From: Candidatus Woykebacteria bacterium RBG_13_40_15
GTDB lineage: Bacteria; Patescibacteriota; Microgenomatia; Woykebacterales; RBG-16-39-9b
Reading direction: 5' to 3'
NCBI GenBank assembly: GCA_001816655.1
Contig: MHCP01000015.1
Coordinates: 96,049 to 160,048, forward strand
Length of the DNA stretch: 64,000 nucleotides
A model generated the notes under the pieces. It saw nothing but the letters and a program-made list of their open reading frames with translations. It ran no database searches and was not told where the DNA came from. How positions within the stretch are numbered: the stretch's first letter is position 1; every line of letters starts with the position of its first letter. This document shows positions 1,314-60,896 of the stretch, one piece after another. The position numbers and the translations under genes were made by a program.

Positions 1314-3266
1314 ATGGGTAAAACAATTGGTATAGATCTTGGAACTACAAATTCGGCTGTTGCTGTGGTTGAAGGCGGTCAGCCAAAAGTAATTCACAGC
1401 GCTGAAGGAGAAAACATTATCCCAAGCGTTGTGGACCCGGTAAAGCACATTGCTGGGAGAGTAGCAAAACGCCAGCAAATTGTAAATCCAAAAGACACAA
1501 TTTTTTCGATCAAAAGGCTGATGGGCCGCCGTTTCAAGGACGAGTCAGTCCAGTATGATATTAGATGGCTTCCATACACGATAAAAGAAGGTAAAGACAG
1601 CGTGGCCGTAGTTGAAGTGCAGGGTAAAGAATATATCCCGCAAGAAATTTCGGCAATGGTCTTGCAAAAAATAAAAGCCGATGCCGAAAGTTACCTCGGT
1701 GAAAAAGTAACTGAAGCAGTAATTACCGTTCCAGCATATTTTGATGATTCACAGCGCCAAGCAACAAAACAAGCCGGTGAAATTGCTGGCCTAGAAGTTA
1801 AAAGAATTATTAACGAGCCGACGGCTGCCGCCCTTGCTTACGGACTAGATAAAGAAAAAGCCCACACTATCGCGGTCTATGATCTTGGTGGCGGGACTTT
1901 TGACATTACGATTTTGGAAATCGGTGAGGGAGTTTTTGAAGTTAAATCAACTGCCGGGGACACACATCTTGGCGGAGACGACTTTGACCAGAAAGTTCTA
2001 AGCTACTTAATTGACGAATTCAAAAAAGAACAGGGAATTGATCTATCCGGTGACAAACAGGCTCTGCAGAGACTGCGCGATGCCGCCGAAAAAGCAAAGG
2101 TCGAGCTTTCCTCTACTGCCGAAGCAGAAATAAATATCCCGTTTATTACCGCCGATTCTTCCGGGCCAAAACACCTGGTTACGAAGTTAACACGCGCGAA
2201 ACTGGAAAGCTTAACAGGTGATCTTGTCGAAAAGAGTTTTGATGCGGTAAAACAGGCGCTTAAAGACGCGAAACTCGAACCTTCAAAAATAGACGAAATC
2301 GTTTTAGTCGGTGGGCAAACCAGAATGCCCGCAGTTGCCGAAAAAGTAAAAAGTTTCTTTGGCAAAGAAGCGCACAAAGGAATAAATCCGGACGAAGTGG
2401 TGGCAGTTGGTGCGGCGATCCAGGGAGCAGTGCTCGCGGGAGAAATGAAGGAGATGGTTTTGCTGGATGTGACTCCCCTTTCCTTAGGAGTTGAAACACT
2501 TGGTGGGGTGATGACCACGTTGATAGCAAGAAACACAACTGTTCCGACAGCAAAAACAGACGTCTTTTCTACTGCGGCGGATAATCAAACCAGTGTTGAA
2601 ATTCACGTGTTGCAAGGTGAGCGGCCAATGGCAGCGGATAATAAGTCACTCGGGCGGTTTATCCTTGAAGGAATTCCGCCCGCGCCAAGAGGTATACCAC
2701 AAGTTGAAGTGACATACGATATTGATGCAAATGGGATTTTGAATGTTACGGCAAAAGACAAAGCAACCGGCAAAGAGCAATCAATAAAAATTACTGGTAG
2801 CACTGGTCTTTCCAAAGACGAAATAGACAAAATGCAAAAAGAAGCAGAAAGCAACGCGGCTGAAGATGCAAAGAGAAAAGAGCTGATAGAAGCGCGAAAT
2901 ATCGCCGACTCTCTCGTGTACACAGCTGAAAAATCAATCAAAGATGCAGGAGATAAATTGCCCGCTGATGTGAAAACAGAAGTTGAGGAAAAAGTAAAAG
3001 CTGCGAAAGAAGCAATTGCCGGCGATGATTTGGAAAAAATCAAAAAAGCAACTGACGAGCTAGGAGCTTCCCTACAAAAAATTGGCTCTTCAATGTACCA
3101 GACCCCTCCGGGCTCCGACAAAACCGAGTCTTCTCCTCAAGACGAAATAAAAGCCGAAGGTGCAACCACTGAGGACACGGAAAAAGAAACCGGAAGCACT
3201 GAGGAGAAAAAAGACGGACCAGTCGAAGGCGAAGTCGTGGACGAAGATAAAGATAAGAAAGAATAA
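1314..3266 (+). CDS. dnaK: Chaperone DnaK (Hsp70)
   Basis: 650 aa with [17 protein letters not shown] and the full Hsp70 ATPase and substrate-binding domains. RBS GGAGG upstream. Confidence 0.97.
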
Positions 3267-3270
3267 AGAT

Positions 3271-3969
3271 ATGAAAAGTTGGTGGGAATTGGGCGAAGGC
3301 GCTGGTTTCAGTGGCAACAAACTATCAACCTATCAAATTGATTGCCCTTTTTGTGAGGAAAGAGACAATTTTGAAGAAGCGGCTCATTTCGAAAAGAAGA
3401 AACCAAACTCATCCAAAGTACTAAATTTTGACACCTTAAAGTGTGGTAACTGCGCAGGCTATGTTATGGTTCTTTGGTCGTCTAGTGACTATGACTTTCA
3501 TTCCGGAATCCACGATTTTCGAGTGTTACCCTGGTCACTTACAATAAATAAAGCCCCTACTCATTGGCCTCAAGCAATACAAAGATATTGGGTGCAAGCA
3601 AATAAATCTTTACAAGTCGAAAACTGGGATGCCGCGGCTGAAATGGCTAGAAGTACATTACAAATTGCTTTAAGAGACCACGGGGCTGTTGGTAAGGATT
3701 TATTTGAGGAAATAAATAATCTTGCAGAGAAAGGAGTGTTGCCACCTCTTATGAAAGAATGGTCTCATGAAGTGAGAGAGCTTGGCAACGACTCAGCCCA
3801 TCCCAGACCAGAGCAAAAAGAAACAAGCCTAGGAGATGCCCGAGATATTGTAGAATTTTTGGACTTTCTTCTCGAATATCTTTACGACTTGCCAAAACGA
3901 ATAGAAGATTATAGAGGAAGAAGGAAAGCCGAAAAAGCAACCACTCAGATCAAAAAGAAAACAAACTAG
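3271..3969 (+). CDS. Zn-ribbon (CPFC..CGNC) plus DUF4145-like C-terminal domain protein
   Basis: Real start is ATG 3271, not the ORF-track start 3160 that overlaps dnaK. Two CxxC pairs N-terminally. C-terminal RELGNDSAH motif resembles the DUF4145 signature. Begins 5 nt after the dnaK stop. Confidence 0.6.
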   Translation: MKSWWELGEGAGFSGNKLSTYQIDCPFCEERDNFEEAAHFEKKKPNSSKVLNFDTLKCGNCAGYVMVLWSSSDYDFHSGIHDFRVLPWSLTINKAPTHWPQAIQRYWVQANKSLQVENWDAAAEMARSTLQIALRDHGAVGKDLFEEINNLAEKGVLPPLMKEWSHEVRELGNDSAHPRPEQKETSLGDARDIVEFLDFLLEYLYDLPKRIEDYRGRRKAEKATTQIKKKTN

Positions 3970-3987
3970 TTGTAACAGTATTCCAAA

Positions 3988-4030
3988 CTCCCAAAAACTT
4001 GAAATTTCTATAAGTCAGATATATAATCGC
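3988..4030 (+). promoter_or_regulatory. Promoter repeat copy A (TTGAAA-17-TATAAT)
   Basis: -35 TTGAAA 3999..4004, 17-nt spacer, -10 TATAAT 4022..4027. First of five copies of CCAAAAACTTGAAATTTCTATAAGTCA...TATAAT. Confidence 0.6.
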
Positions 4031-4128
4031 GAAGATTACATCTAGCCCGTTTCTATGCGGGATTTAATCCCGTCAGTGAATAATGTCGGTACCACTGCAT
4101 TAGTACAGTCCGAAAGGAGAGTCGTCTG

Positions 4129-4539
4129 ATGGCTGACAGGAAAAGATCGACTTCTTGGAGAGCCGATCCAGAGTTCCGGAGAATGGTGGAGGAAAAGAAG
4201 CAAGAGCTGGATTACCTCTTCGGTCTTATCGGTCCGTTCGAGGATTGGGAGGACTGGGATGAGTCTATCCCAGACGAGGACGTGGTCCGCTTAGAGCTGC
4301 ACGTAGGAGACGGCATTGAAAGAGGTCATCTGGAGCTAACCATGGGCGAGCTTCGAAGGGTCAAAGAGCTCGCCGAACTGCTCAAAGTGCTGAAAGAGCA
4401 GAAGATCATGATCGAAGAGCCAGACACGATCGCTAGACTCACCAGCGAGCTAGGATCCGAAAGTGCAAAGAGGGCTCTCGAGGTAGTACTCGGAAGCTTG
4501 ATAATCGAAGGCTGTCCTTGCGACGAACTGTCGGACTAA
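4129..4539 (+). CDS. Hypothetical acidic protein (GC-rich cassette gene 1)
   Basis: 136 aa, GC-rich codon usage unlike the flanks. GGAGAG RBS. No recognisable domain. Ends in CPCDELSD. Confidence 0.5.
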   Translation: MADRKRSTSWRADPEFRRMVEEKKQELDYLFGLIGPFEDWEDWDESIPDEDVVRLELHVGDGIERGHLELTMGELRRVKELAELLKVLKEQKIMIEEPDTIARLTSELGSESAKRALEVVLGSLIIEGCPCDELSD

Positions 4540-4562
4540 TCACGGAAGCGAGGAGGCTTAAA

Positions 4563-4913
4563 ATGCTGACAATAAAAATGACCGGCGACAACGGCCATCT
4601 GCTAACCATAAGCAGAGAAGAAGGCAGAATCCTTATGGAAATGCGATCGCCTGGGGATATGATCCGGGGCTATGAGTTCCGAAAGCATCCCATTAGCCTG
4701 GCTCGGGCGCTCCACTACGTCCTGGCAGTCCCCGAATGTGATGACCTCGCCTTCGTCGAGGAGGATTTCAGAGGCAGGGTTTCCGTCAAGGAGGAGGAGT
4801 ACACCTTGACCTTTGACACCTTGGGCGAGTCAAAAGGCGTTACAGTCAAGGCCCGGCGGGATGACTTTTCCGACGTGGTCGGCCTTTTGGAAAATCTCCC
4901 CAGAGGCTCATGA
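4563..4913 (+). CDS. Hypothetical protein (GC-rich cassette gene 2)
   Basis: GGAGG RBS then ATG 4563 (the ORF track starts earlier at 4518, overlapping gene 1). 116 aa with no recognisable domain. Confidence 0.45.
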   Translation: MLTIKMTGDNGHLLTISREEGRILMEMRSPGDMIRGYEFRKHPISLARALHYVLAVPECDDLAFVEEDFRGRVSVKEEEYTLTFDTLGESKGVTVKARRDDFSDVVGLLENLPRGS

Positions 4914-4989
4914 TCGATCGTCGCCACCAGCGCCTGCCGACAGAGCTCGACTTTAACCGGTCGGGCTCTTCCATCTCTAATAATTTTCC

Positions 4990-5065
4990 AAAAAAAACTT
5001 GAAATTTCTAAAGCGGCTTCTTGTGTGTTGACAGTCGATACACTAAAGGGGTACACTAGCGGTGT
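4990..5065 (+). promoter_or_regulatory. Promoter repeat copy B (truncated) fused to a TTGACA-18-TACACT promoter with TACACT/GTGTA operator-like repeats
   Basis: TTGAAATTTCTA 4999..5010, then TTGACA 5028..5033 and TACACT 5052..5057. TACACT occurs at 5039 and 5052, with inverted GTGTA at 5062. The ATG at 5066 leaves almost no leader. Confidence 0.5.
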
Positions 5066-5329
5066 ATGGTAAAAAGGGTAAATATTTCTTTTCCAGAAAA
5101 AACCTTAAATGATCTGAAAGAGCTTGTACCACCTCGAGAAAGAAGCAAACTGGTGAGTGAGGCCGTCGAAGAAAAGTTAAATGATTTTAAAAGGGCTGTA
5201 GCGTTTGAGAAGCTCGAGAAAGCCCGTGAGAAATTCTCTTCCTTTGAGACTATTAAAAGCAAGGAAGACACTGTTGCTTGGGTAAAAAATATGAGAAAAG
5301 GTTGGAATCGCAGAGAAACCTCGAAGTAA
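5066..5329 (+). CDS. vapB: Ribbon-helix-helix (CopG/VapB-like) antitoxin
   Basis: 87 aa with an N-terminal RHH pattern (RVNISFPEKTLNDLKEL..RERSKLVSEAVEEKL). Immediately upstream of a PIN gene. Confidence 0.7.
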   Translation: MVKRVNISFPEKTLNDLKELVPPRERSKLVSEAVEEKLNDFKRAVAFEKLEKAREKFSSFETIKSKEDTVAWVKNMRKGWNRRETSK

Positions 5330-5334
5330 TCAGA

Positions 5335-5709
5335 ATGAAATTATTGGTTGATACAAACGTTTTTATTGCTTACGGTAAAAAAAGAGATGGCGGTTTGGTT
5401 GATAGAATAAAATCTGAGAACCACGATCTTTACACCTCGGTGGTGTCGCTAGCAGAACTTCGGAGCGGAATCCACAAACGAGACCTAAATTTTTATCAAG
5501 CGATTAAAGAAACCTTTAGGCCGCTGCCTGTCGATTTGGAGATTGCGGATTTGGCTGGCGAATTTAGATACGAATTTTTGAGAAAGGGTTTGGATATAGA
5601 TTTGGCCGACCATATCATAGCTGCGACTGCTTTATTAAATAATTTGGCGCTGGTTACTTTCAACAAAAAAGATTTTCCCCACAAAAATCTCGAGCTGTAT
5701 CCAATTTGA
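5335..5709 (+). CDS. vapC: PIN-domain toxin (VapC-like)
   Basis: Start at ATG 5335 (MKLLVDTNVFI). Conserved D in the LVDTN motif. About 125 aa, 5 nt after the RHH stop. Confidence 0.75.
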   Translation: MKLLVDTNVFIAYGKKRDGGLVDRIKSENHDLYTSVVSLAELRSGIHKRDLNFYQAIKETFRPLPVDLEIADLAGEFRYEFLRKGLDIDLADHIIAATALLNNLALVTFNKKDFPHKNLELYPI

Positions 5710-5722
5710 TAAAATTAGCAAA

Positions 5723-5842
5723 ATGGAAATAAAGGAAACACAGGCGAAAAGTATTTTAACCCCTTCCAAATTCACAACTGCTTATGCAGGAAAGAGAACA
5801 CTTCAATCTATTGATAAATTAAAGTGTTTCCCAAAAACTTGA
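5723..5842 (+). pseudogene. Diverged duplicate of the 5' end of the radical-SAM SplB-like gene (remnant)
   Basis: Encodes MEIKETQAKSILTPSK..., versus MEIKEIAAKSVLTPSK at 7693. About 80% nt identity over the first ~48 nt, then divergence. The stop falls inside promoter repeat C. Confidence 0.55.
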
Positions 5843-5870
5843 AATTTCTATAAGTCAAAGATATAATTCC
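5829..5870 (+). promoter_or_regulatory. Promoter repeat copy C (TTGAAA-17-TATAAT)
   Basis: -35 at 5839..5844 and -10 at 5862..5867. Near-identical to copies A and E. Confidence 0.6.
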
Positions 5871-5964
5871 ACCAACAACAGAAAAGACTCAACCAAGCCA
5901 GCCACTTACCTAAGAAGGGATTTCAAGTGTAGTTTCGGAGGAATACGAAAGGAGCACGGCGGAA

Positions 5965-6702
5965 ATGAGTGAGGGACGAGTTGCTTTGGTCACTGGTTCA
6001 TCTCGTGGAATCGGCCAGGCCATCGCAGTCAAGCTGGCTTCTCAAGGAGCAAGAGTGGCCATCAACTGTTTCCGAGACTTAGATGGTGCAGCTGAAACGC
6101 TGCGCTTAATCGAATCATCTGGAGGCCAGGCCGTCATAATCAGAGCGGATCTCGGTAGTGCCGAAGGAGTTGCCGACCTGCTTGGAAGAACTCAGCAGGC
6201 TCTGGGAGATATCGATATCCTCGTCCACAATGCCGGGTATTTCTATGCCACTCTCCTGCCTCGCTTCAAGAGGGAAGAGTGGGATAAACTGATACAGATT
6301 AACCTGACAGCGGCTTTCGAGCTCGCTAGCGGTGTATATCTGCAAATGGCGAGGAGGAGATGGGGCCGCATTGTCTTCATTTCTTCAGTCATTGCCCTGG
6401 CTGGCAACACCGGTCAGAGTGGTTACGGAGCTGCAAAGGCAGGGCTGATTGGGCTTGCCAAGTCAGTTGCTGTTGAATATGGTGCTAGGGAAATCACCTG
6501 TAACGTCGTTGCGCCAGGATACATCAGAACCAGGATGACCGAGGATGTTCACGAAGAGACCATCGGCGAAGCTTTAGAACGGCAAGCAATCAAACGGCCT
6601 GGAACACCAGAAGACGTAGCTGCCTTGGTCGGTTTTCTAGCTAGCGACGAGGCTAGTTGGATTACTAGGCAGGTATTCCAGGTCGACGGGGGCCTCCTAT
6701 GA
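5965..6702 (+). CDS. Short-chain dehydrogenase/reductase, 3-oxoacyl-ACP reductase (FabG)-like
   Basis: TGSSRGIGQAIA glycine-rich motif and a conserved YGAAK catalytic motif. GC-rich, with a GGAGG RBS. Confidence 0.8.
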   Translation: MSEGRVALVTGSSRGIGQAIAVKLASQGARVAINCFRDLDGAAETLRLIESSGGQAVIIRADLGSAEGVADLLGRTQQALGDIDILVHNAGYFYATLLPRFKREEWDKLIQINLTAAFELASGVYLQMARRRWGRIVFISSVIALAGNTGQSGYGAAKAGLIGLAKSVAVEYGAREITCNVVAPGYIRTRMTEDVHEETIGEALERQAIKRPGTPEDVAALVGFLASDEASWITRQVFQVDGGLL

Positions 6703-6737
6703 TGCGGGGTTCCCCAAACAGGCCGTAACTTGAGCGA

Positions 6738-7175
6738 GTGCTTGGCGCACTTTTGGAAGGAGGAACGGATTTGGCTGGAATAAACGTCGCCCAATTAACG
6801 AAGGGCTACAAATTTCCCCCGATTACCTTTGCCGTCTCAGCCGAGCAGGCAGAGGCATACCGGAAGGTGACCGAGGGTGTCGAGGGATCAAGCTATATCC
6901 CTCCGCTCGGGGCGATCGCATTCGCCCTTCAGTCCCTGCTCGAGCAGGTGGAGTTGCCGGAAGGCTCGGTTCATGGCGGAGAGGGTTACGAGTGCCATAG
7001 CCCAATTGCGGTTGGTAGCGAGCTAATTGCGAATGGCTCTGTCGTTGACCGAGCTGACCGCGGAAGCTTCGCCCTCCTCGAAGTGGAGATCCAACTGACA
7101 GTGGCAGGTTCTTTGGAACCGGCCTTGGTAAGTGGAGCAACACTCGTGACGCCGCTGCTCAAAGGAGGCTACTGA
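6738..7175 (+). CDS. Hotdog-fold protein, MaoC N-terminal-like (HadA-like non-catalytic partner)
   Basis: 145 aa, GC-rich, directly followed and overlapped by a MaoC dehydratase gene. This is the HadA-HadB-like pair arrangement (inference). Confidence 0.45.
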   Translation: MLGALLEGGTDLAGINVAQLTKGYKFPPITFAVSAEQAEAYRKVTEGVEGSSYIPPLGAIAFALQSLLEQVELPEGSVHGGEGYECHSPIAVGSELIANGSVVDRADRGSFALLEVEIQLTVAGSLEPALVSGATLVTPLLKGGY

Positions 7176-7576
7176 TGACTGTTCTAACTGCTCCGGCTGA
7201 GCTTCGTGCCACCCGCCAGTTCGATCAGGAAACCATCAACCGCTACGCCGATCTGGTCGGGGATCACAACCCCATTCATGTCGACGAGGAGTTTGCGAGG
7301 AGCACTCCTTTCGGCGGGACAATTGCCCATGGCATGCTCGTCTTGTCGCTAGCCTCTAACATGCTGGAGAAGCAATTCGGCGACCGGTGGCGAGCGTCGG
7401 GCAAGTTGAAGGTTCGGTTCAAGGCGCCGACCAAAAGCGGAGCTACCGTTACTGCTCAAGCCAGTTTGAAGGAGGGGGAGCAGCCGGCCGACAACAAGAT
7501 CGCGACCTACCGAGTCGAATGCCGGAACGAGCAGAGAGAGGTAGTCATAGTGGGCACTGCGCAGGTTACTCTGTAA
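7175..7576 (+). CDS. MaoC-like (R)-specific dehydratase, hotdog fold (HadB/PhaJ-like)
   Basis: DLVGDHNPIHVD..GGTIAHGM matches the MaoC dehydratase active-site motif. ATGA start overlaps the upstream stop. Confidence 0.75.
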   Translation: MTVLTAPAELRATRQFDQETINRYADLVGDHNPIHVDEEFARSTPFGGTIAHGMLVLSLASNMLEKQFGDRWRASGKLKVRFKAPTKSGATVTAQASLKEGEQPADNKIATYRVECRNEQREVVIVGTAQVTL

Positions 7577-7595
7577 CCCAGTGCCCAAGTTCGGT

Positions 7596-7642
7596 CCCCG
7601 GGGCCTTGCTGTTCCAGCAAAGGTCCCGGGATAGCCTCTTTT
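7596..7642 (+). terminator. Possible intrinsic terminator after the FabG/hotdog cassette
   Basis: Imperfect GC-rich hairpin (CCTTGCTG-ttc-CAGCAAAGG, flanked by CCCCGGGG and TCCCGGGA), then CTCTTTTA. Confidence 0.3.
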
Positions 7643-7692
7643 ATCAGACATTAAGTTCCCAATAAATTCCTATCTTCTGCTAAAATGACTCT

Positions 7693-8541
7693 GTGGAAAT
7701 AAAAGAAATAGCAGCGAAAAGTGTTTTAACTCCCTCCAAACTCCCCGGAGTTGATTTTGTGGTTAATCCTTACATTAGTTGCGGTTTTGCGTGCACTTAT
7801 TGCTACGCAACTTTTATGGCAAGATATGTCGGCAAGACAGCGAACGATTGGGGAAAATTTGTTTTTGTAAAAGAAAACGCTCCCGAAGTTTTAAAAGAGG
7901 AACTAGCAAAACTAAAAAATAAAGGAGCTGGAAAAAGTATCCTTTTTAGTTCTGTCACCGATCCCTATCAAGGTGCAGAATCAAAATATAAAATTACCCA
8001 AAAGTGTCTGGAAGTTTTAGCAGATTTTGGTTTCAGTGGACAAGTTGGAATTTTAACAAAATCCAATTTAGTTTTAAGAGATGCGGATACATTTAAAAAA
8101 CTAAAAGATGTTGAGGTGGGACTGACTATTATAACAACTGATGATAAAATTTCTCGCTATTTTGAAAAATATGCACCAGCTGCAAGTTTAAGACTAGAAG
8201 CCTTGAAGAAACTAAATGAAGAGGGTATAAAAACTTACGTGTTTGTCGGACCTCTTTTGCCTCATTTTGTTGCCGAAGAAGAAAAGCTGGAAAAGCTTTT
8301 TAAAGAGATTTCCGAAACAGGAAACAAGGGGCTTTTTGTGGAACACATAAATTTGAGTAAATATATTTTGGAAAGACTGGAGAGGGAAACAAAAGATTTG
8401 GATAAAAGTACAACAGCCAAGTTTTATGAGTCAAAACAAAAACCTTACAGAGACAGACTGGATGAAATCGTTGTAAAGTTAGTTAAAAAATACAATTTGA
8501 AACTTCGATCCGGCTCCACAATCTACCATCGCGGGTCTTAA
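7693..8541 (+). CDS. Radical SAM protein, SplB-like (DNA-repair photolyase family, COG1533-like)
   Basis: CGFACTYC (CxxxCxxC) near the N-terminus. GTG start. AT-rich, host-like composition. 282 aa. Confidence 0.8.
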   Translation: MEIKEIAAKSVLTPSKLPGVDFVVNPYISCGFACTYCYATFMARYVGKTANDWGKFVFVKENAPEVLKEELAKLKNKGAGKSILFSSVTDPYQGAESKYKITQKCLEVLADFGFSGQVGILTKSNLVLRDADTFKKLKDVEVGLTIITTDDKISRYFEKYAPAASLRLEALKKLNEEGIKTYVFVGPLLPHFVAEEEKLEKLFKEISETGNKGLFVEHINLSKYILERLERETKDLDKSTTAKFYESKQKPYRDRLDEIVVKLVKKYNLKLRSGSTIYHRGS

Positions 8542-8547
8542 ATTTTC

Positions 8548-8585
8548 CCCACTAAACTTGAAGATTTATCTATTTGTAGTATAAT
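8548..8585 (+). promoter_or_regulatory. Promoter repeat copy D (diverged, TTGAAG-16-TATAAT)
   Basis: CCCCACTAAACTTGAAGATTTATCTATTTGTAGTATAAT. -35 at 8558..8563 and -10 at 8580..8585. Confidence 0.5.
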
Positions 8586-8641
8586 CTGCGCACAATCGAA
8601 TATATTGGAGAGTGCTTCGAAAAACCTTCGAGAAAGGAGGG

Positions 8642-9388
8642 ATGGTTGCCATGTTGCGCTTTCTTCAGCAGCTAACAAGGCGACTCCGAGGAAGAAGTCT
8701 AACCAAGGCCAAGCTTTGGTTGGCGCTTTTGTCCTTGGTGTTCTTGCCTCTTTTTGTGAGTGCCGAGCCTGCCTGTGAGGCGCAGAAGATCCGCGAGCGG
8801 TATGGAGTGGAGATTGTGCTCGTGGGTCAGAGCTGGAGCGAGACCAGCCTGGGCGCGGTTGACGACGCTTTGAGTCGACTTCCACCGCATGTCGTCAGCC
8901 AATTGGGTAGCCGGTTCAACGGCAGTCTGTACATACTGTGCAACACTGAGTCGCGTACCCTATCCGGTACCAGCGTCTTCTCGCACGGCGCGAACTTCTA
9001 CTCCAATAGTGACGGCCGCAACGAGCTCGTCCTCTACCCCGACCAGAGTACACCCACTGTCCTGCACGAACTAGCCCATGCCTATCAACTCCGCTTAGTT
9101 CCAGCGGGAAAGTACGCTCTGGTCTTTCGAGACGAGAAGATGAAGGACTTCATGCAAGCCACCGGTTGGCGTCTACTTAGCTCCGATGCGCAGGTGGAAA
9201 CTGCTCTTGATCAGACACAGCTAAGCTTCGCCTATGATGGTCCGACGGTCTGGCATTTCATGTCCAACAACGACCCGCTGGAGGACTACGCGAACTCGTT
9301 CGCCCTGTTCTTCTACGACCTGGAGCGTCTTCGCCAACTCTCGCCAGTGCGCTACGACTGGATCCTAGAGCACGTGGCCAGCGAGTGA
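8642..9388 (+). CDS. Secreted putative Zn-metallopeptidase-like protein (HELAH motif)
   Basis: Start is ATG 8642, after an AAAGGAGGG RBS. N-terminal hydrophobic signal-like segment. HEXXH motif (VLHELAHAYQ). GC-rich. Confidence 0.55.
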   Translation: MVAMLRFLQQLTRRLRGRSLTKAKLWLALLSLVFLPLFVSAEPACEAQKIRERYGVEIVLVGQSWSETSLGAVDDALSRLPPHVVSQLGSRFNGSLYILCNTESRTLSGTSVFSHGANFYSNSDGRNELVLYPDQSTPTVLHELAHAYQLRLVPAGKYALVFRDEKMKDFMQATGWRLLSSDAQVETALDQTQLSFAYDGPTVWHFMSNNDPLEDYANSFALFFYDLERLRQLSPVRYDWILEHVASE

Positions 9389-9427
9389 AGTTGATGACGA
9401 CGAAGTGCCGAGAATCAGTGAACAGTC

Positions 9428-9457
9428 AAAGGCCCTTGCAGCCAGCGAGGGCCCTTT
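9428..9457 (+). terminator. Possible terminator hairpin after the HEXXH gene
   Basis: AAAGGCCC-ttgcagccagcga-GGGCCCTTT, followed by a short T-run. Confidence 0.35.
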
Positions 9458-9465
9458 CTAATTCC

Positions 9466-9502
9466 CCAAAACTTGAAATTTCTATAAGTCATACATTATA
9501 AT
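9466..9502 (+). promoter_or_regulatory. Promoter repeat copy E (TTGAAA-18-TATAAT)
   Basis: -35 at 9473..9478 and -10 at 9497..9502. Its downstream leader shares GAAAGGAGGGATGG with copy D's leader. Confidence 0.6.
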
Positions 9503-9569
9503 TCCACCACAATTGAATATCGCGGACGGTGTCCTCCGAGAAATCGAAGGGCTTTCAAAGAAAGGAGGG

Positions 9570-10562
9570 ATGGCCGAGATGGCTACCCGACTGCCTCAAA
9601 AAGGGATGGCACCTGGTGCTACCCGAGGCAAACCTGTTACCCTTGAGCAGGTTCTCGATCTGTTGGAACGATTGAAGGGGAAGAAGTTCGGGTTAAGGGA
9701 GTTTCAGAGACTCATTGAGTCGTTCGATGTCCTCGCTCTTATTGGGAGCGGAGAACTGACGAGGGAGACGTTGCGCCTTATCCTTACCCCTAATGAGGGC
9801 TGGGCCGCTGGCGAACTTCAAAGGATGCTGAGTTCCTACTTCCCTTTCTGGAATGAGGAAATTGAGTCCTCACAAGGCTATCCCGATGGTTACCGATTCA
9901 AGTCTGCAGCCGGGAAGCTGCTAGCCTTGCAGAGTCTTCACCTTCTCGGTACCGATGACTATGGCAGCCACGTAAAAGAGCTAGCCACCCACTACGCTCG
10001 CAACATGCCTAAGGGAGCCGAGGAGCTTTTAGTTTGCCCGAAACCCTCAAGGGCGAAGGAGTGGGGGTTAACTTACTCCTACAACCTACCCTTAAGTAGT
10101 GCGTTGATAATCCTAGACAGGGCCATAAAGCCAAGGTTCCAAAACTGGTGGAAAGATGAGCAGCTTGGCGACACCGAGATGCTAAGACTCACCGACAAAA
10201 CTGCAGCAGCGCTCGACAAGCTGGAGGCGGAAACACCAGGAGACTACCTAGTCATTCCTGTCCAGATGGGGATGAGGCACCGTGGCAGAAGCGCTCGTAG
10301 AGCTGTAGCCTGCTTCGCCGAAAACGAGTTCGGTCTCGGTCCTCTCGAAGTCGCCTACTACCTTGCTAGCTGTCCCGAGCGGTTCGTCATGTGGTACGAT
10401 CTAGGGATTATCTGCGCAGGTGCCGAATGCAAAGATAGTCCTAAGGGGGAGTTCGACGGTTGCCCAGCCTTCAACGAGCACCAGGATAGGATCAATCTTC
10501 GCTACCGCCGAGCTGACGAGTACAGTGATTTGTATGGGGTGGCGACCGGCTTCCTGTCGTAG
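9570..10562 (+). CDS. Hypothetical protein (GC-rich orphan, 330 aa)
   Basis: Start is ATG 9570 after an AAAGGAGGG RBS. No recognisable domain. Cys-rich C-terminus. Confidence 0.5.
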   Translation: MAEMATRLPQKGMAPGATRGKPVTLEQVLDLLERLKGKKFGLREFQRLIESFDVLALIGSGELTRETLRLILTPNEGWAAGELQRMLSSYFPFWNEEIESSQGYPDGYRFKSAAGKLLALQSLHLLGTDDYGSHVKELATHYARNMPKGAEELLVCPKPSRAKEWGLTYSYNLPLSSALIILDRAIKPRFQNWWKDEQLGDTEMLRLTDKTAAALDKLEAETPGDYLVIPVQMGMRHRGRSARRAVACFAENEFGLGPLEVAYYLASCPERFVMWYDLGIICAGAECKDSPKGEFDGCPAFNEHQDRINLRYRRADEYSDLYGVATGFLS

Positions 10563-10594
10563 CTCATCCACCTTCTAACCACAGTTGTTAACAA

Positions 10595-10632
10595 GGCGCC
10601 CGACTCTAACCCAGTCGGGCGCTACCATTTCT
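10595..10632 (+). terminator. Intrinsic terminator at the right end of the island
   Basis: Perfect 9-10 bp stem GGCGCCCGAC / GTCGGGCGC with a 9-nt loop, then TACCATTTCT. Confidence 0.5.
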
Positions 10633-10681
10633 AATACTATTAGCAAATTTTGGTTGAATCTGCTAAAATTCATCACTAGTT

Positions 10682-10834
10682 ATGGCTGAAAAACGTGATT
10701 ACTACCAAATCTTAGGCGTAGGAAAAACAGCCTCCGCCGATGAAATAGCATCCTTTGTATGCGAAAAAGACATTCGTATTTTTCGCGTACTCCCGGATGC
10801 TGCGATTAAGCATAGGCTACGCCTATTAGCTTAA
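10682..10834 (+). pseudogene. Diverged duplicate of the dnaJ 5' end (J-domain start), remnant ORF
   Basis: Encodes MAEKRDYYQILGVGKTASADEI, then unrelated sequence. Compare dnaJ MAKRDYYEVLGVSKTASADDI 190 nt downstream. Confidence 0.5.
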
Positions 10835-10869
10835 TCTTTAAAAAAGCTTATTATTTTGATTAACTATTT

Positions 10870-11964
10870 ATGGCAAAAAGAGATTACTACGAAGTGCTAG
10901 GGGTTTCGAAAACCGCTAGTGCTGACGACATAAAGAAAGCATACAGAGGTATGGCACGGAAGCATCATCCGGATGTGGATAAAACAGCTGGTGCAGAAGG
11001 ACGGTTTAAAGAAATAAACGAAGCCTACCAAGTTTTGTCTGACGCCCAAAAGCGGGAGGCTTATGACCGCTTTGGCCACGCTGCTTTTCAAGCGGGTGGC
11101 GCTCAAGGACAGCCGGGTGGCGGTTTTCAATATCAGTACGGACCTGGAGTTTCTTTTGATTTTGATTTCGGGGGTTTCCGAGACCCATTTGATATTTTTG
11201 AAGAATTTTTTGGATCGAGATCTCCTTTTGGTAGACAAAGTAGGCGAGGCCCGGCACGTGGGCAAGATCTTCATTTTGAAATTACCCTACCTTTTGAAAA
11301 CGCTGCTTTTGGGGTGACACGAAATATAGAAATTCCCCGACGCGAAACTTGTTCGGAATGCAGCGGTAGCGGCGCAGCAAAAGGAAGTAAGCCAGTTACT
11401 TGCCCAGCCTGCAGAGGTTCGGGACGAGTGAGCAACCAGACACAGTCTATTTTCGGCGCTTTTATGACGATGTCTCCTTGCCCAACCTGTAGGGGTGAGG
11501 GGACAGTAATCCTCAAGAAATGCCCAAAATGCAAAGGTAGTGGAATAGTGCGCGGAATCAAAGAAACCCAAATTAAAATCCCGGCTGGTGTCGATGACGG
11601 CGACACTATCCGTTTCCAGAGGCTTGGTGAAGCCGGCGAAAAAGGCGGTGAGTACGGAGACCTTTATTTAACTATCAGAGTTCTCCCTCACAAATTTTTG
11701 AAAAGAGCCGGTTTCGATGTTTATTACGAACAACCAATTTCTTTTACTCAAGCAGCACTTGGTGATGTAATAGAAGTACCGACGCTGGACGGAAAAGTAA
11801 ATTTGAAAATCCCAGAAGGAATTCAGACTGGAACGGAACTGCGGTTAAAAGAAAGAGGAATTGTGCATGGACAGTCCCGCGGCGATCAATACGTTAGAGT
11901 AAAAGTGGTAACCCCTAAACACCTTTCCGCTCGGCAGAAGGAAGCTTTAGAAGAGTTGAAATAG
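10870..11964 (+). CDS. dnaJ: Chaperone DnaJ
   Basis: J-domain with HPD. G/F-rich region. Four CxxCxGxG zinc-finger repeats. C-terminal domains. Confidence 0.95.
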   Translation: MAKRDYYEVLGVSKTASADDIKKAYRGMARKHHPDVDKTAGAEGRFKEINEAYQVLSDAQKREAYDRFGHAAFQAGGAQGQPGGGFQYQYGPGVSFDFDFGGFRDPFDIFEEFFGSRSPFGRQSRRGPARGQDLHFEITLPFENAAFGVTRNIEIPRRETCSECSGSGAAKGSKPVTCPACRGSGRVSNQTQSIFGAFMTMSPCPTCRGEGTVILKKCPKCKGSGIVRGIKETQIKIPAGVDDGDTIRFQRLGEAGEKGGEYGDLYLTIRVLPHKFLKRAGFDVYYEQPISFTQAALGDVIEVPTLDGKVNLKIPEGIQTGTELRLKERGIVHGQSRGDQYVRVKVVTPKHLSARQKEALEELK

Positions 11965-12510
11965 GATTCTTCGAATCCTGCGCTATTTCTAGCTAAGGAT
12001 TTTCCATACTTTTGAAATTTTTGAGCTTCTCAATTCCTCAAGTATTCCCAAATCCTGCGCTAGACATCTTATGCTTAGCTAAAAGTGAACAAATAGAACA
12101 GGGGCGAGCTCTCGTCGTGATTCACCGCGGACATCACAACTAAAGAGACTCGCCCCCTGACCAACTGGTCGTACTCCTCGGCCGAGATGCCTTATAAGCA
12201 CGACTAGTTGATCTCTTGTGCGGCGCCGATCATGGCCACGCGAAGACCTCGCTAGCTATTAGGAGGAGGCTAGCCCCAAACCAGCGCCGCCCTCTATTCC
12301 GATTTCTTCCGGGGTGGGGGTGGTGCCAGCAAAAGGAGGTTCTTAGCTGACCGTTCCCCTTTTTCTACCGGGTGAGGTCTTCCATGCGGTTGTAAGCTGG
12401 AAGGAGGTAAGGCCTAAGAGCTCGTAGCCGCGGGAAGTGCCAGCACCACCCCATACCCCAATCGGGATTGCTCGCTTTTATTCCAAAACAGACCAAAAGG
12501 CCTGGGTCTC
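11965..12510. other. GC-rich ORF-free structured region (candidate ncRNA of unknown identity, or decayed foreign DNA)
   Basis: About 550 bp, much more GC-rich than the flanks. No ORF of 60 aa or more. Nested inverted repeats such as GGGGCGAG..CTCGCCCC, and direct repeats of AATCCTGCGCTA. Confidence 0.3.
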
Positions 12511-12513
12511 TCC

Positions 12514-12589
12514 GGTTTCTCGGGAGGGACTCGAACCCCAACCTAAGTGGCTAACAGCCACTGGCTCTTCCAATTGAGCTACCCGAGAA
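12514..12589 (-). tRNA. tRNA-Asn (anticodon GTT)
   Basis: Minus-strand cloverleaf TCTCGGG-TA-GCTC..GAGC-C-AGTGG-CTGTTAG-CCACT..TTCGAGT..CCCGAGA. The T-stem and acceptor junction is one nt off canonical. Confidence 0.6.
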
Positions 12590-12715
12590 TCCCTTCCGGT
12601 TTTTATTTTATTTACTACTCGGTTTATTGTCAACTTTAGCGGGACTTAAAGTGGAGCAGGGTTGACCAGAAAATACTTTAGTGCTACTATTGGCGTATAA
12701 TTTTAGAGACTTACC

Positions 12716-12748
12716 AAAAGTGGGAATAAAATCCCACTTTTACTTTAG
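12716..12748. terminator. Bidirectional intrinsic terminator upstream of nusA
   Basis: Perfect 10-bp stem AAAAGTGGGA-ataaaa-TCCCACTTTT, flanked by A and T runs. Confidence 0.5.
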
Positions 12749-12807
12749 TAGGAAGGTGACAAGTAACAGGTAACAAGTTGCCAAGAGATTTTTAAAAATA
12801 ACTTGTT

Positions 12808-60821: not shown

Positions 60822-60896
60822 CGGGGTGTAGCTCAGTGGTAGAGCACAGGGCTGGGGGTCCTGGTGCCGGAGGTTCGATTCCTCTCACCCCGACCA
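60822..60896 (+). tRNA. tRNA-Pro (anticodon GGG)
   Basis: Canonical cloverleaf CGGGGTG-TA-GCTC..GAGC-A-CAGGG-CTGGGGG-TCCTG..GGAGG-TTCGATT-CCTCT-CACCCCG-A-CCA. Confidence 0.9.

Follow-up and report, generated by a model that had tools for sequence, protein, structure and literature searches.

The folded DNA between dnaJ and nusA in a 64-kb window (the whole 64,000-nt stretch analysed here) is probably the non-coding 3' part of a tRNA-Asn transcription unit read from the minus strand (12085-12513), in which a conserved 3' module would both terminate and stabilise the transcript. We consider the element to be a real, lineage-restricted and unclassified structured RNA unit whose expression is predicted; it belongs to no Rfam 15 family, and no description of it was found in the literature searched. 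The kind is familiar, a bacterial structured ncRNA attached to a tRNA unit, and this is a new example of it with a narrow distribution. The window NusA is 82% identical to Candidatus Woykebacteria NusA in a comparison with GTDB species, and the closest relatives of the window DnaJ are also Woykebacteria; judged by these proteins, the host is a Candidatus Woykebacteria bacterium of the CPR. Genomes of the CPR are ~1 Mb in size with very little non-coding DNA and, to our knowledge, few ncRNAs specific to this group have been described. A folded RNA of 400 nt with a near-consensus promoter is costly for such a small genome, which makes it a reasonable candidate for a new RNA function, tRNA expression or translation being the candidate field.

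Architecture of the proposed minus-strand unit

The initial annotation had described 11965-12510, irrespective of strand, as a GC-rich, ORF-free region rich in complementary segments. The GC richness holds for 12095-12513 (GC 0.57, compared to 0.41 for the window) but not for 11965-12094 (GC 0.36), and the GC-rich folded part spans 12085-12513 (~420-430 nt); 419-nt windows taken outside the dnaK-dnaJ island have a mean GC of 0.40 (sd 0.036) and a maximum of 0.54. The claim that no ORF reaches 60 aa proved correct, the longest being 58 aa and overlapping the tRNA. The complementary segments are likewise present: GGGGCGAG at 12101-12108 pairs with CTCGCCCC at 12149-12156, a nested GTGAT/ATCAC stem surrounds CCGCGG, the GGATTC-ttc-GAATCC hairpin occupies 11962-11980, and the direct repeat AATCCTGCGCTA occurs at 11974 and 12051. 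The minus strand of 12090-12513 folds at -189.8 kcal/mol (z = -5.0), a value equalled by none of 100 dinucleotide shuffles, and the plus strand at -165.4 kcal/mol (z = -3.1). Taken with the comparative data below, the evidence points to the minus strand and to a single unit with tRNA-Asn, the parts of which are listed in Table 1.

Table 1. Features of the dnaJ-nusA region, in window coordinates.
Feature	Position	Strand	Remarks
Gene order in window			hrcA, grpE, dnaK, ~7.5-kb GC-rich insertion, dnaJ, folded region, tRNA-Asn, nusA, infB
dnaJ	10870-11964		
AT-rich spacer	11965-12094 (~130 nt)		GC 0.36; outside the folded RNA; common to L081/L082 only
H4 with U-rich tail	12085..12157 (H4: 12100-12157)	-	Hairpin; RNAalifold; conserved in L081, L083 and L086
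H3	12159..12213	-	Hairpin, 15-pair stem; RNAalifold; conserved in L081, L083 and L086
Domain D2	12218..12292	-	13-pair closing helix, 12280-12292 with 12218-12230
Domain D1	12299..12466	-	168 nt; unique to the window genome; from folding and inverted repeat
Short hairpin directly 3' of tRNA	12485..12504	-	CAGGCC-UUUU-GGUCUG, then UUUU; read from the sequence
tRNA-Asn (GTT)	12514..12589	-	Intact, CCA not encoded; ARAGORN; Rfam tRNA 48.9 bits
Sigma-70-type promoter	12605..12633	-	TTGACA-17-TAAAAT; upstream of tRNA-Asn; 11/12 consensus matches

The AT-rich spacer next to dnaJ carries the hairpin at 11962-11980, which is terminator-like for dnaJ on the plus strand, and, besides the 12-nt direct repeat AATCCTGCGCTA, an 18-nt inverted repeat (11985-12002 / 12050-12067); the spacer may be a small insertion or the relic of an att site. 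One segment within it, TTCGAATCCTGC, looks like the 3' half of a tRNA T-arm.

Relatives of the locus were located through DnaJ (91%, 89% and 79% identity) and keep the order dnaK-dnaJ, a spacer of 520-665 bp, and nusA; three related lineages, L081, L083 and L086, carry recognisable parts of the unit. Promoters of sequence TTGACA-17-TAGAAT (11/12 consensus) lie at the same minus-strand place in L081 and L086, and in the latter, from which the tRNA is absent, the promoter directly precedes the unit. In the window, transcription would start at 12633..12605, run through tRNA-Asn and the weak hairpin behind it, proceed over ~400 nt of GC-rich RNA comprising D1, D2 and H3, and end at H4 and its U-rich tail, facing the end of dnaJ.

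The first domain of this predicted RNA, D1, is closed by a long predicted helix (15-nt arms at 12317-12331 and 12438-12452, extended outward) that encloses a three-way junction; both mismatches of the inverted repeat are G.U pairs on the minus strand. Folded in isolation, D1 has no strand preference. In D2, the minus strand folds with z = -3.1 and the plus strand with z = -0.7. The apical hairpin of D2 has a perfect 9-nt complementarity to the interior of D1 (12242-12250 / 12374-12382; GAAGACCTC / GAGGTCTTC), from which a pseudoknot could arise; in L083, GAAGACCTC and GAGGTCTTC pair inside D2, in reversed order. H3 is strongly folded (z = -6.5) and its apex is self-complementary, reading UCGGCCGA (12178-12185) in the window and UGGCCA in L086.

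H4 contains an invariant 12-nt segment, UUAGUUGUGAUG, and is a GC-rich stem-loop with a U-rich tract immediately behind it (UGUUCUAU, 5/8 U), an arrangement found in every homologue (L081, L083 and L086). We presume from this that H4 is the intrinsic terminator of the minus-strand unit, near the dnaJ stop; the terminator scanner omits it because its loop exceeds the 8-nt limit of the scanner. It resembles intrinsic terminators between convergent genes in that a GC-rich stem and a U-rich tail stand where the tRNA unit meets dnaJ. Unlike them, it is 58 nt long with an invariant segment and is preceded by a conserved 55-nt hairpin, and a sequence conservation of ~75% at 79-91% DnaJ identity is more than a plain terminator needs.

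The short hairpin behind the tRNA may serve as a processing site or as a weak terminator that leaks; terminator prediction flags its counterparts in L081 and L083 as terminator-like on either strand. Since a terminator-like hairpin follows the tRNA and a scan predicted no promoter between this hairpin and D1, transcription of the folded body requires read-through. This requirement is the weakest link of the model, and the body may be transcribed only weakly. In the model, RNA polymerase would read through the small hairpin and tRNA 3' processing would then free the trailer as a separate RNA; this processing would be of the RNase Z type, because CCA is not encoded in tRNA-Asn. The stems of D2, H3 and H4 would stabilise the released RNA, which might act through its exposed loops, and D1 and the D2 interior would be lineage-specific additions to the conserved 3' module. 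The H3 GGCC apex and the C-rich loops of ACCUCC type, the latter by pairing with Shine-Dalgarno sequences, are the candidate functional sites suggested by the predicted fold.

The unit was compared with 3'ETS-leuZ of E. coli, an sRNA of ~50 nt derived from the 3' external transcribed spacer of a tRNA operon. Like such sRNAs, the element lies directly 3' of a tRNA, apparently in one unit with it (a promoter is predicted upstream of the tRNA and none between the tRNA and D1), is non-coding, and would be freed by tRNA 3' processing. It differs from them in its size (~400 nt), its high degree of structure, the putative nature of its release and of any sponge activity, the terminator-like hairpin that intervenes between tRNA and body, and the fact that the L086 module follows a small ORF and no tRNA. 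A general habit of folded trailers behind tRNAs in the window genome was rejected, as the tRNA-Pro at 60822 is without one.

Conserved pairing and strand

The start of the spacer in the relatives found through DnaJ is clearly homologous to window positions 12095-12292. By pairwise blastn, L081 and L083 are related to each other over their whole length, and the window has in common with them only the dnaJ-proximal ~143 nt and the 13-nt 5' strand of one helix. What the three related lineages retain is either the D2 closing helix, the H3-H4 pair, or the whole set. We aligned the helices of the window, L081, L083 and L086; RNAalifold recovers H3 and H4 from this alignment, to which the D2 closing helix was added with an artificial GAAA linker between its strands. 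Standard pairs occupy 92.1% of the 191 pair cells, and a shift of the 3' partners by 1-3 columns lowers this share to 35-51%. Covariance analysis with homologous regions, a check proposed by the initial annotation, thus found the pairs maintained in the window and the three lineages, with eight pairs altered on both sides, a number reached by one of 500 shuffles; these statistics rest on few sequences because only four lineages carry a recognisable module. The D2 closing helix, kept in L081 and L083, has three pairs changed on both sides, and the 49 nt that it encloses are not conserved. Judged by these comparisons, selection maintains the minus-strand RNA pairing of the D2 stem, H3 and H4. 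For D1 and the D2 interior (~235 of 430 nt), no homologue was found in any set searched, and the structure given is the predicted fold of a single genome.

The assignment to the minus strand bears directly on another reading, in which the folded region is a structured 3' untranslated region of dnaJ on the plus strand. In its favour, 8 nt part the dnaJ stop from the element in L083 and L086, without an intervening terminator; the hairpin beside the tRNA also looks like a plus-strand terminator; and D1 alone folds slightly better on the plus strand. Against this, G.U cells of the alignment number 22 on the minus strand, compared to 2 A.C cells, which the plus strand would read as G.U, and the minus strand outperforms the plus strand by 5-29 kcal/mol in all six dnaJ-side spacers examined; its z-score is -2.1 in L086 and between -4.7 and -6.8 in the other five. 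D2 on the plus strand has the z-score of -0.7 given above. A terminator-like hairpin and 130 nt of AT-rich spacer also part dnaJ from the element in the window and L081, and in L086 the minus-strand promoter and ORF end at H3-H4. Finally, H3 and H4 are missing wherever a relative has no minus-strand unit, and the hairpins therefore belong to the unit and not to dnaJ. We consequently regard a dnaJ 3' untranslated region as very improbable.

The same homologues speak on coding potential. The initial annotation had offered as a fallback that the region could be a decayed, GC-rich foreign fragment, and its GC is indeed similar to that of the cargo of the dnaK-dnaJ island; gene callers even place a 90-aa ORF over the homologous region in the relative L082. 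A decayed or frameshifted foreign gene is nevertheless hardly credible. No stop-free stretch exceeds 61 codons, Pfam has no match in any of the six frames of the region, and translated searches for a frameshifted remnant, made with the stop-free translations against viral contigs, JGI metagenomes and 5.8 billion proteins, found no relative. The substitutions between homologues keep base pairs, not frame, and indels of 1, 2, 5 and 8 nt separate them, so that no reading frame is kept. Phage and plasmid records, searched by blastn with the region, contained no meaningful match. Of the fallback there remains a non-coding variant that concerns the genome-unique part: D1 and the D2 interior (~12231-12466) may be an insertion of non-coding foreign DNA.

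Comparison with known RNA families

What stands of the suggestion of a structured RNA is that the region is non-coding, strongly folded and retains its helices with compensatory changes in three lineages; the housekeeping identities proposed for it do not stand. Rfam 15 at gathering score, applied to the whole window, reports tRNAs but no match for the element, so that the covariance-model search suggested in the initial annotation leaves the region without a hit; at E<=10 on a 1-kb slice and four relatives, only tRNAs and chance-level matches appear. ARAGORN finds no tmRNA in the window or relatives, and SRP RNA and 6S RNA are unmatched by their covariance models at E<=10. Separately, sub-threshold matches to the S15 leader lie upstream of rpsO in L083 (13028-13137, 30.7 bits) and L081 (6321-6430, 27.6 bits), the gathering score being 39.5.

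RNase P RNA has a P1 helix formed by its 5' and 3' ends and conserved P4 strands, GGAAAGUCC.. and ..ACAGAA... Its models (RF00010/RF00011) have no match in the window or relatives; the 3' end of the element is a local hairpin, its 5' and 3' ends form no helix together, and the P4 motifs GGAAAGUCC and ACAGAA are absent. We weighed the idea that the element is nonetheless a very divergent RNase P RNA, tmRNA, SRP RNA or 6S RNA missed by the Rfam models, given that CPR sequences are divergent and that the size, the GC richness in an AT-rich genome and the strong promoter would fit. It is extremely unlikely: to the failure of Rfam even at E<=10 and of ARAGORN are added the local 3' hairpin in place of a helix with the 5' end, the 5' half that is not conserved even at 91% DnaJ identity, and the lack of the unit at this locus in several relatives, with a copy elsewhere in those genomes being possible.

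Other families were rejected on similar grounds. Group I introns are common in tRNA genes of Patescibacteria, where they sit in the anticodon loop (PMC13011429). Here the tRNA-Asn is intact, the element lies 3' of it, and the Rfam model RF00028 is unmatched at E<=10. Covariance models of ROOL, GOLLD, HEARO, OLE and raiA are likewise unmatched at E<=10. D1 bears the sequence GGUAG..GGGGAAC..ACCUCCUUU, which we take to resemble 16S helix 45 and the anti-Shine-Dalgarno tail; a relic of the 16S 3' end was rejected, the helix 45-like helix not being formed. D1 has terminal inverted repeats of the MITE type (15-nt arms, 87% complementary, extendable to ~28 nt), but the multiple copies expected of a MITE-like element were not found: there is no second copy of D1 in the 64-kb window, the related loci, the JGI metagenomes or the viral contigs, and a looser D1 pattern gave chance matches only (viral contigs included).

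Two kinds of RNA offer instructive comparisons. ROOL (RF03087) and GOLLD (RF01998) are large ornate bacterial ncRNAs often found near tRNA genes. The element shares with them a length of several hundred nt, GC richness, many helices, adjacency to a tRNA and a self-complementary apical loop, through which contacts between RNAs could be made; it differs in being shorter, unmatched by the models, restricted to four lineages and not conserved over half of its length. RsaE is an sRNA whose C-rich seed motifs base-pair with Shine-Dalgarno regions. The minus strand of the element similarly has four CCUCC motifs (P ~0.01 by shuffling), one of them in a predicted hairpin loop and two being exact copies of the anti-Shine-Dalgarno-like ACCUCCUU; the latter are located in D1, as exact AAGGAGGT 8-mers at 12333 and 12401. 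Unlike the case of RsaE-type sRNAs, the positions of the motifs vary among homologues.

These resemblances allow the tentative, and in our estimate unlikely, proposal that the window holds the first known representative of a new RNA family in Woykebacteria, modular in build, structured and ~300-420 nt long. Such RNAs would have strong promoters, usually accompany tRNA genes, and combine a conserved D2-H3-H4 core with GC-rich expansion domains of fast turnover. They would act via dimerisation through the self-complementary GGCC loop and/or via anti-Shine-Dalgarno-like loops that bind the ribosome-binding sites of mRNAs. RNA dimerisation is seen in other ornate RNAs. Three GC-rich minus-strand units beside dnaJ in more remote relatives (L091, L092 and L104, described below) would then be distant members.

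Turnover of the dnaJ-nusA slot

Rather than a universal RNA gene, the unit is an accessory cassette restricted to certain lineages. At 74-75% DnaJ identity (L089, L094 and L100-L103), dnaJ and nusA are 113-186 bp apart, and the tRNA, H3-H4 and the folded RNA are all missing there. Where the slot is filled, its content differs: tRNA-Asn, D1 and D2 in the window, a tRNA-Thr (GGT; 2605-2680) and D2 in L081, a tRNA and D2 in L083, and a 68-aa ORF in L086. The tRNA of L083 (9409-9481) is a homologue of the window tRNA-Asn with an altered anticodon arm, accepted by Rfam (46.5 bits) and not called by ARAGORN. The ORF of L086 (5973-6176, minus strand) is Cys-rich (CxxC...CxxC), has an AAGGAG ribosome-binding site, lies between the promoter and H3-H4, and has no Pfam match. 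As it takes the place of D1 and D2, the conserved part could be only a 3' end and terminator module.

Searches outside these lineages were consistent with a narrow distribution, which limits what can be claimed for the element. A DNA pattern made from the invariant H4 segment retrieved from the JGI metagenomes the three lineages already known and one chance match, and had no match in the viral contigs. In 0.5 Mb of related loci, a covariance model of H3 and H4 (R1) found only its four training lineages (window, L081, L083 and L086). On small search spaces it scores L092 at 17.9 bits and L104 at 11.2 bits, both adjoining the dnaJ stop on the minus strand; we do not count these as established members because opposite-strand hairpins score similarly (19.7 bits). 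L091, L092 and L104 (DnaJ 70-73%) have other GC-rich, strongly folding minus-strand units beside dnaJ, some with tRNAs and all ended by a terminator, for which Rfam returns no family match; the slot of L104 includes a 76-nt tRNA with a UCA anticodon (3924-3999). The loci of GTDB species found through NusA are not syntenic, nor does their sequence resemble the region. In a related Woykebacteria genome, a 369-kb contig ends exactly at the tRNA-Asn gene (L003, 1-74); the DNA 3' of this tRNA may be repeated or variable between strains.

This variability is the main ground for a more restrictive reading, possible though we think it unlikely, in which H3 and H4 alone have a function: they would terminate a variable minus-strand cassette inserted between dnaJ and nusA and stabilise its 3' end. 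D1 and the D2 interior would be an inert insertion, which could be a small MITE-like inverted-repeat element or recombination debris at an insertion hotspot. The differing slot contents and the relatives without the unit agree with it, as do the mere ~143 nt shared with L081/L083 despite 89-91% DnaJ identity, the long imperfect inverted repeat flanking D1, and the 7.5-kb GC-rich insertion carried by the neighbouring dnaK-dnaJ spacer. However, the D2 closing helix is kept with its three double-sided changes, and inert DNA would lose such a helix; a mobile element should have other copies, and D1 has none in the window, the JGI metagenomes or the viral contigs; and the mismatches of the D1 inverted repeat are both G.U on the minus strand. 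We therefore retain as the better account a folded trailer of the tRNA-Asn unit that includes D1 and D2. Turnover is fast, the tRNA identity and half of the RNA being already replaced at 89-91% DnaJ identity, and the dnaK-dnaJ-nusA region thus stands out as a hotspot where these organisms exchange cassettes.

The flanks of the locus show further peculiarities. The ~7.5-kb GC-rich insertion in the dnaK-dnaJ spacer (window 3160-10869) has ORFs that include PIN-like, SDR, MaoC-like and radical-SAM-like ones, a 56-nt promoter-like repeat present three times (3988, 5828 and 9462) and a duplicated dnaJ 5' fragment (10682-10834). The dnaK-dnaJ gap is only 135-200 bp in L083 and L086, and different small insertions in this spacer of other relatives mark it as an insertion hotspot. 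On the other side, in the nusA leader (window 12662-12750), a promoter (TTGACC-17-TACTAT) precedes the hairpin AAAGTGGGAATAAAATCCCACTTTT, behind which lies a T tract. All relatives, even those without the RNA unit, have this hairpin in nearly invariant form. It resembles a transcription attenuator, and autoregulation by NusA would be possible.
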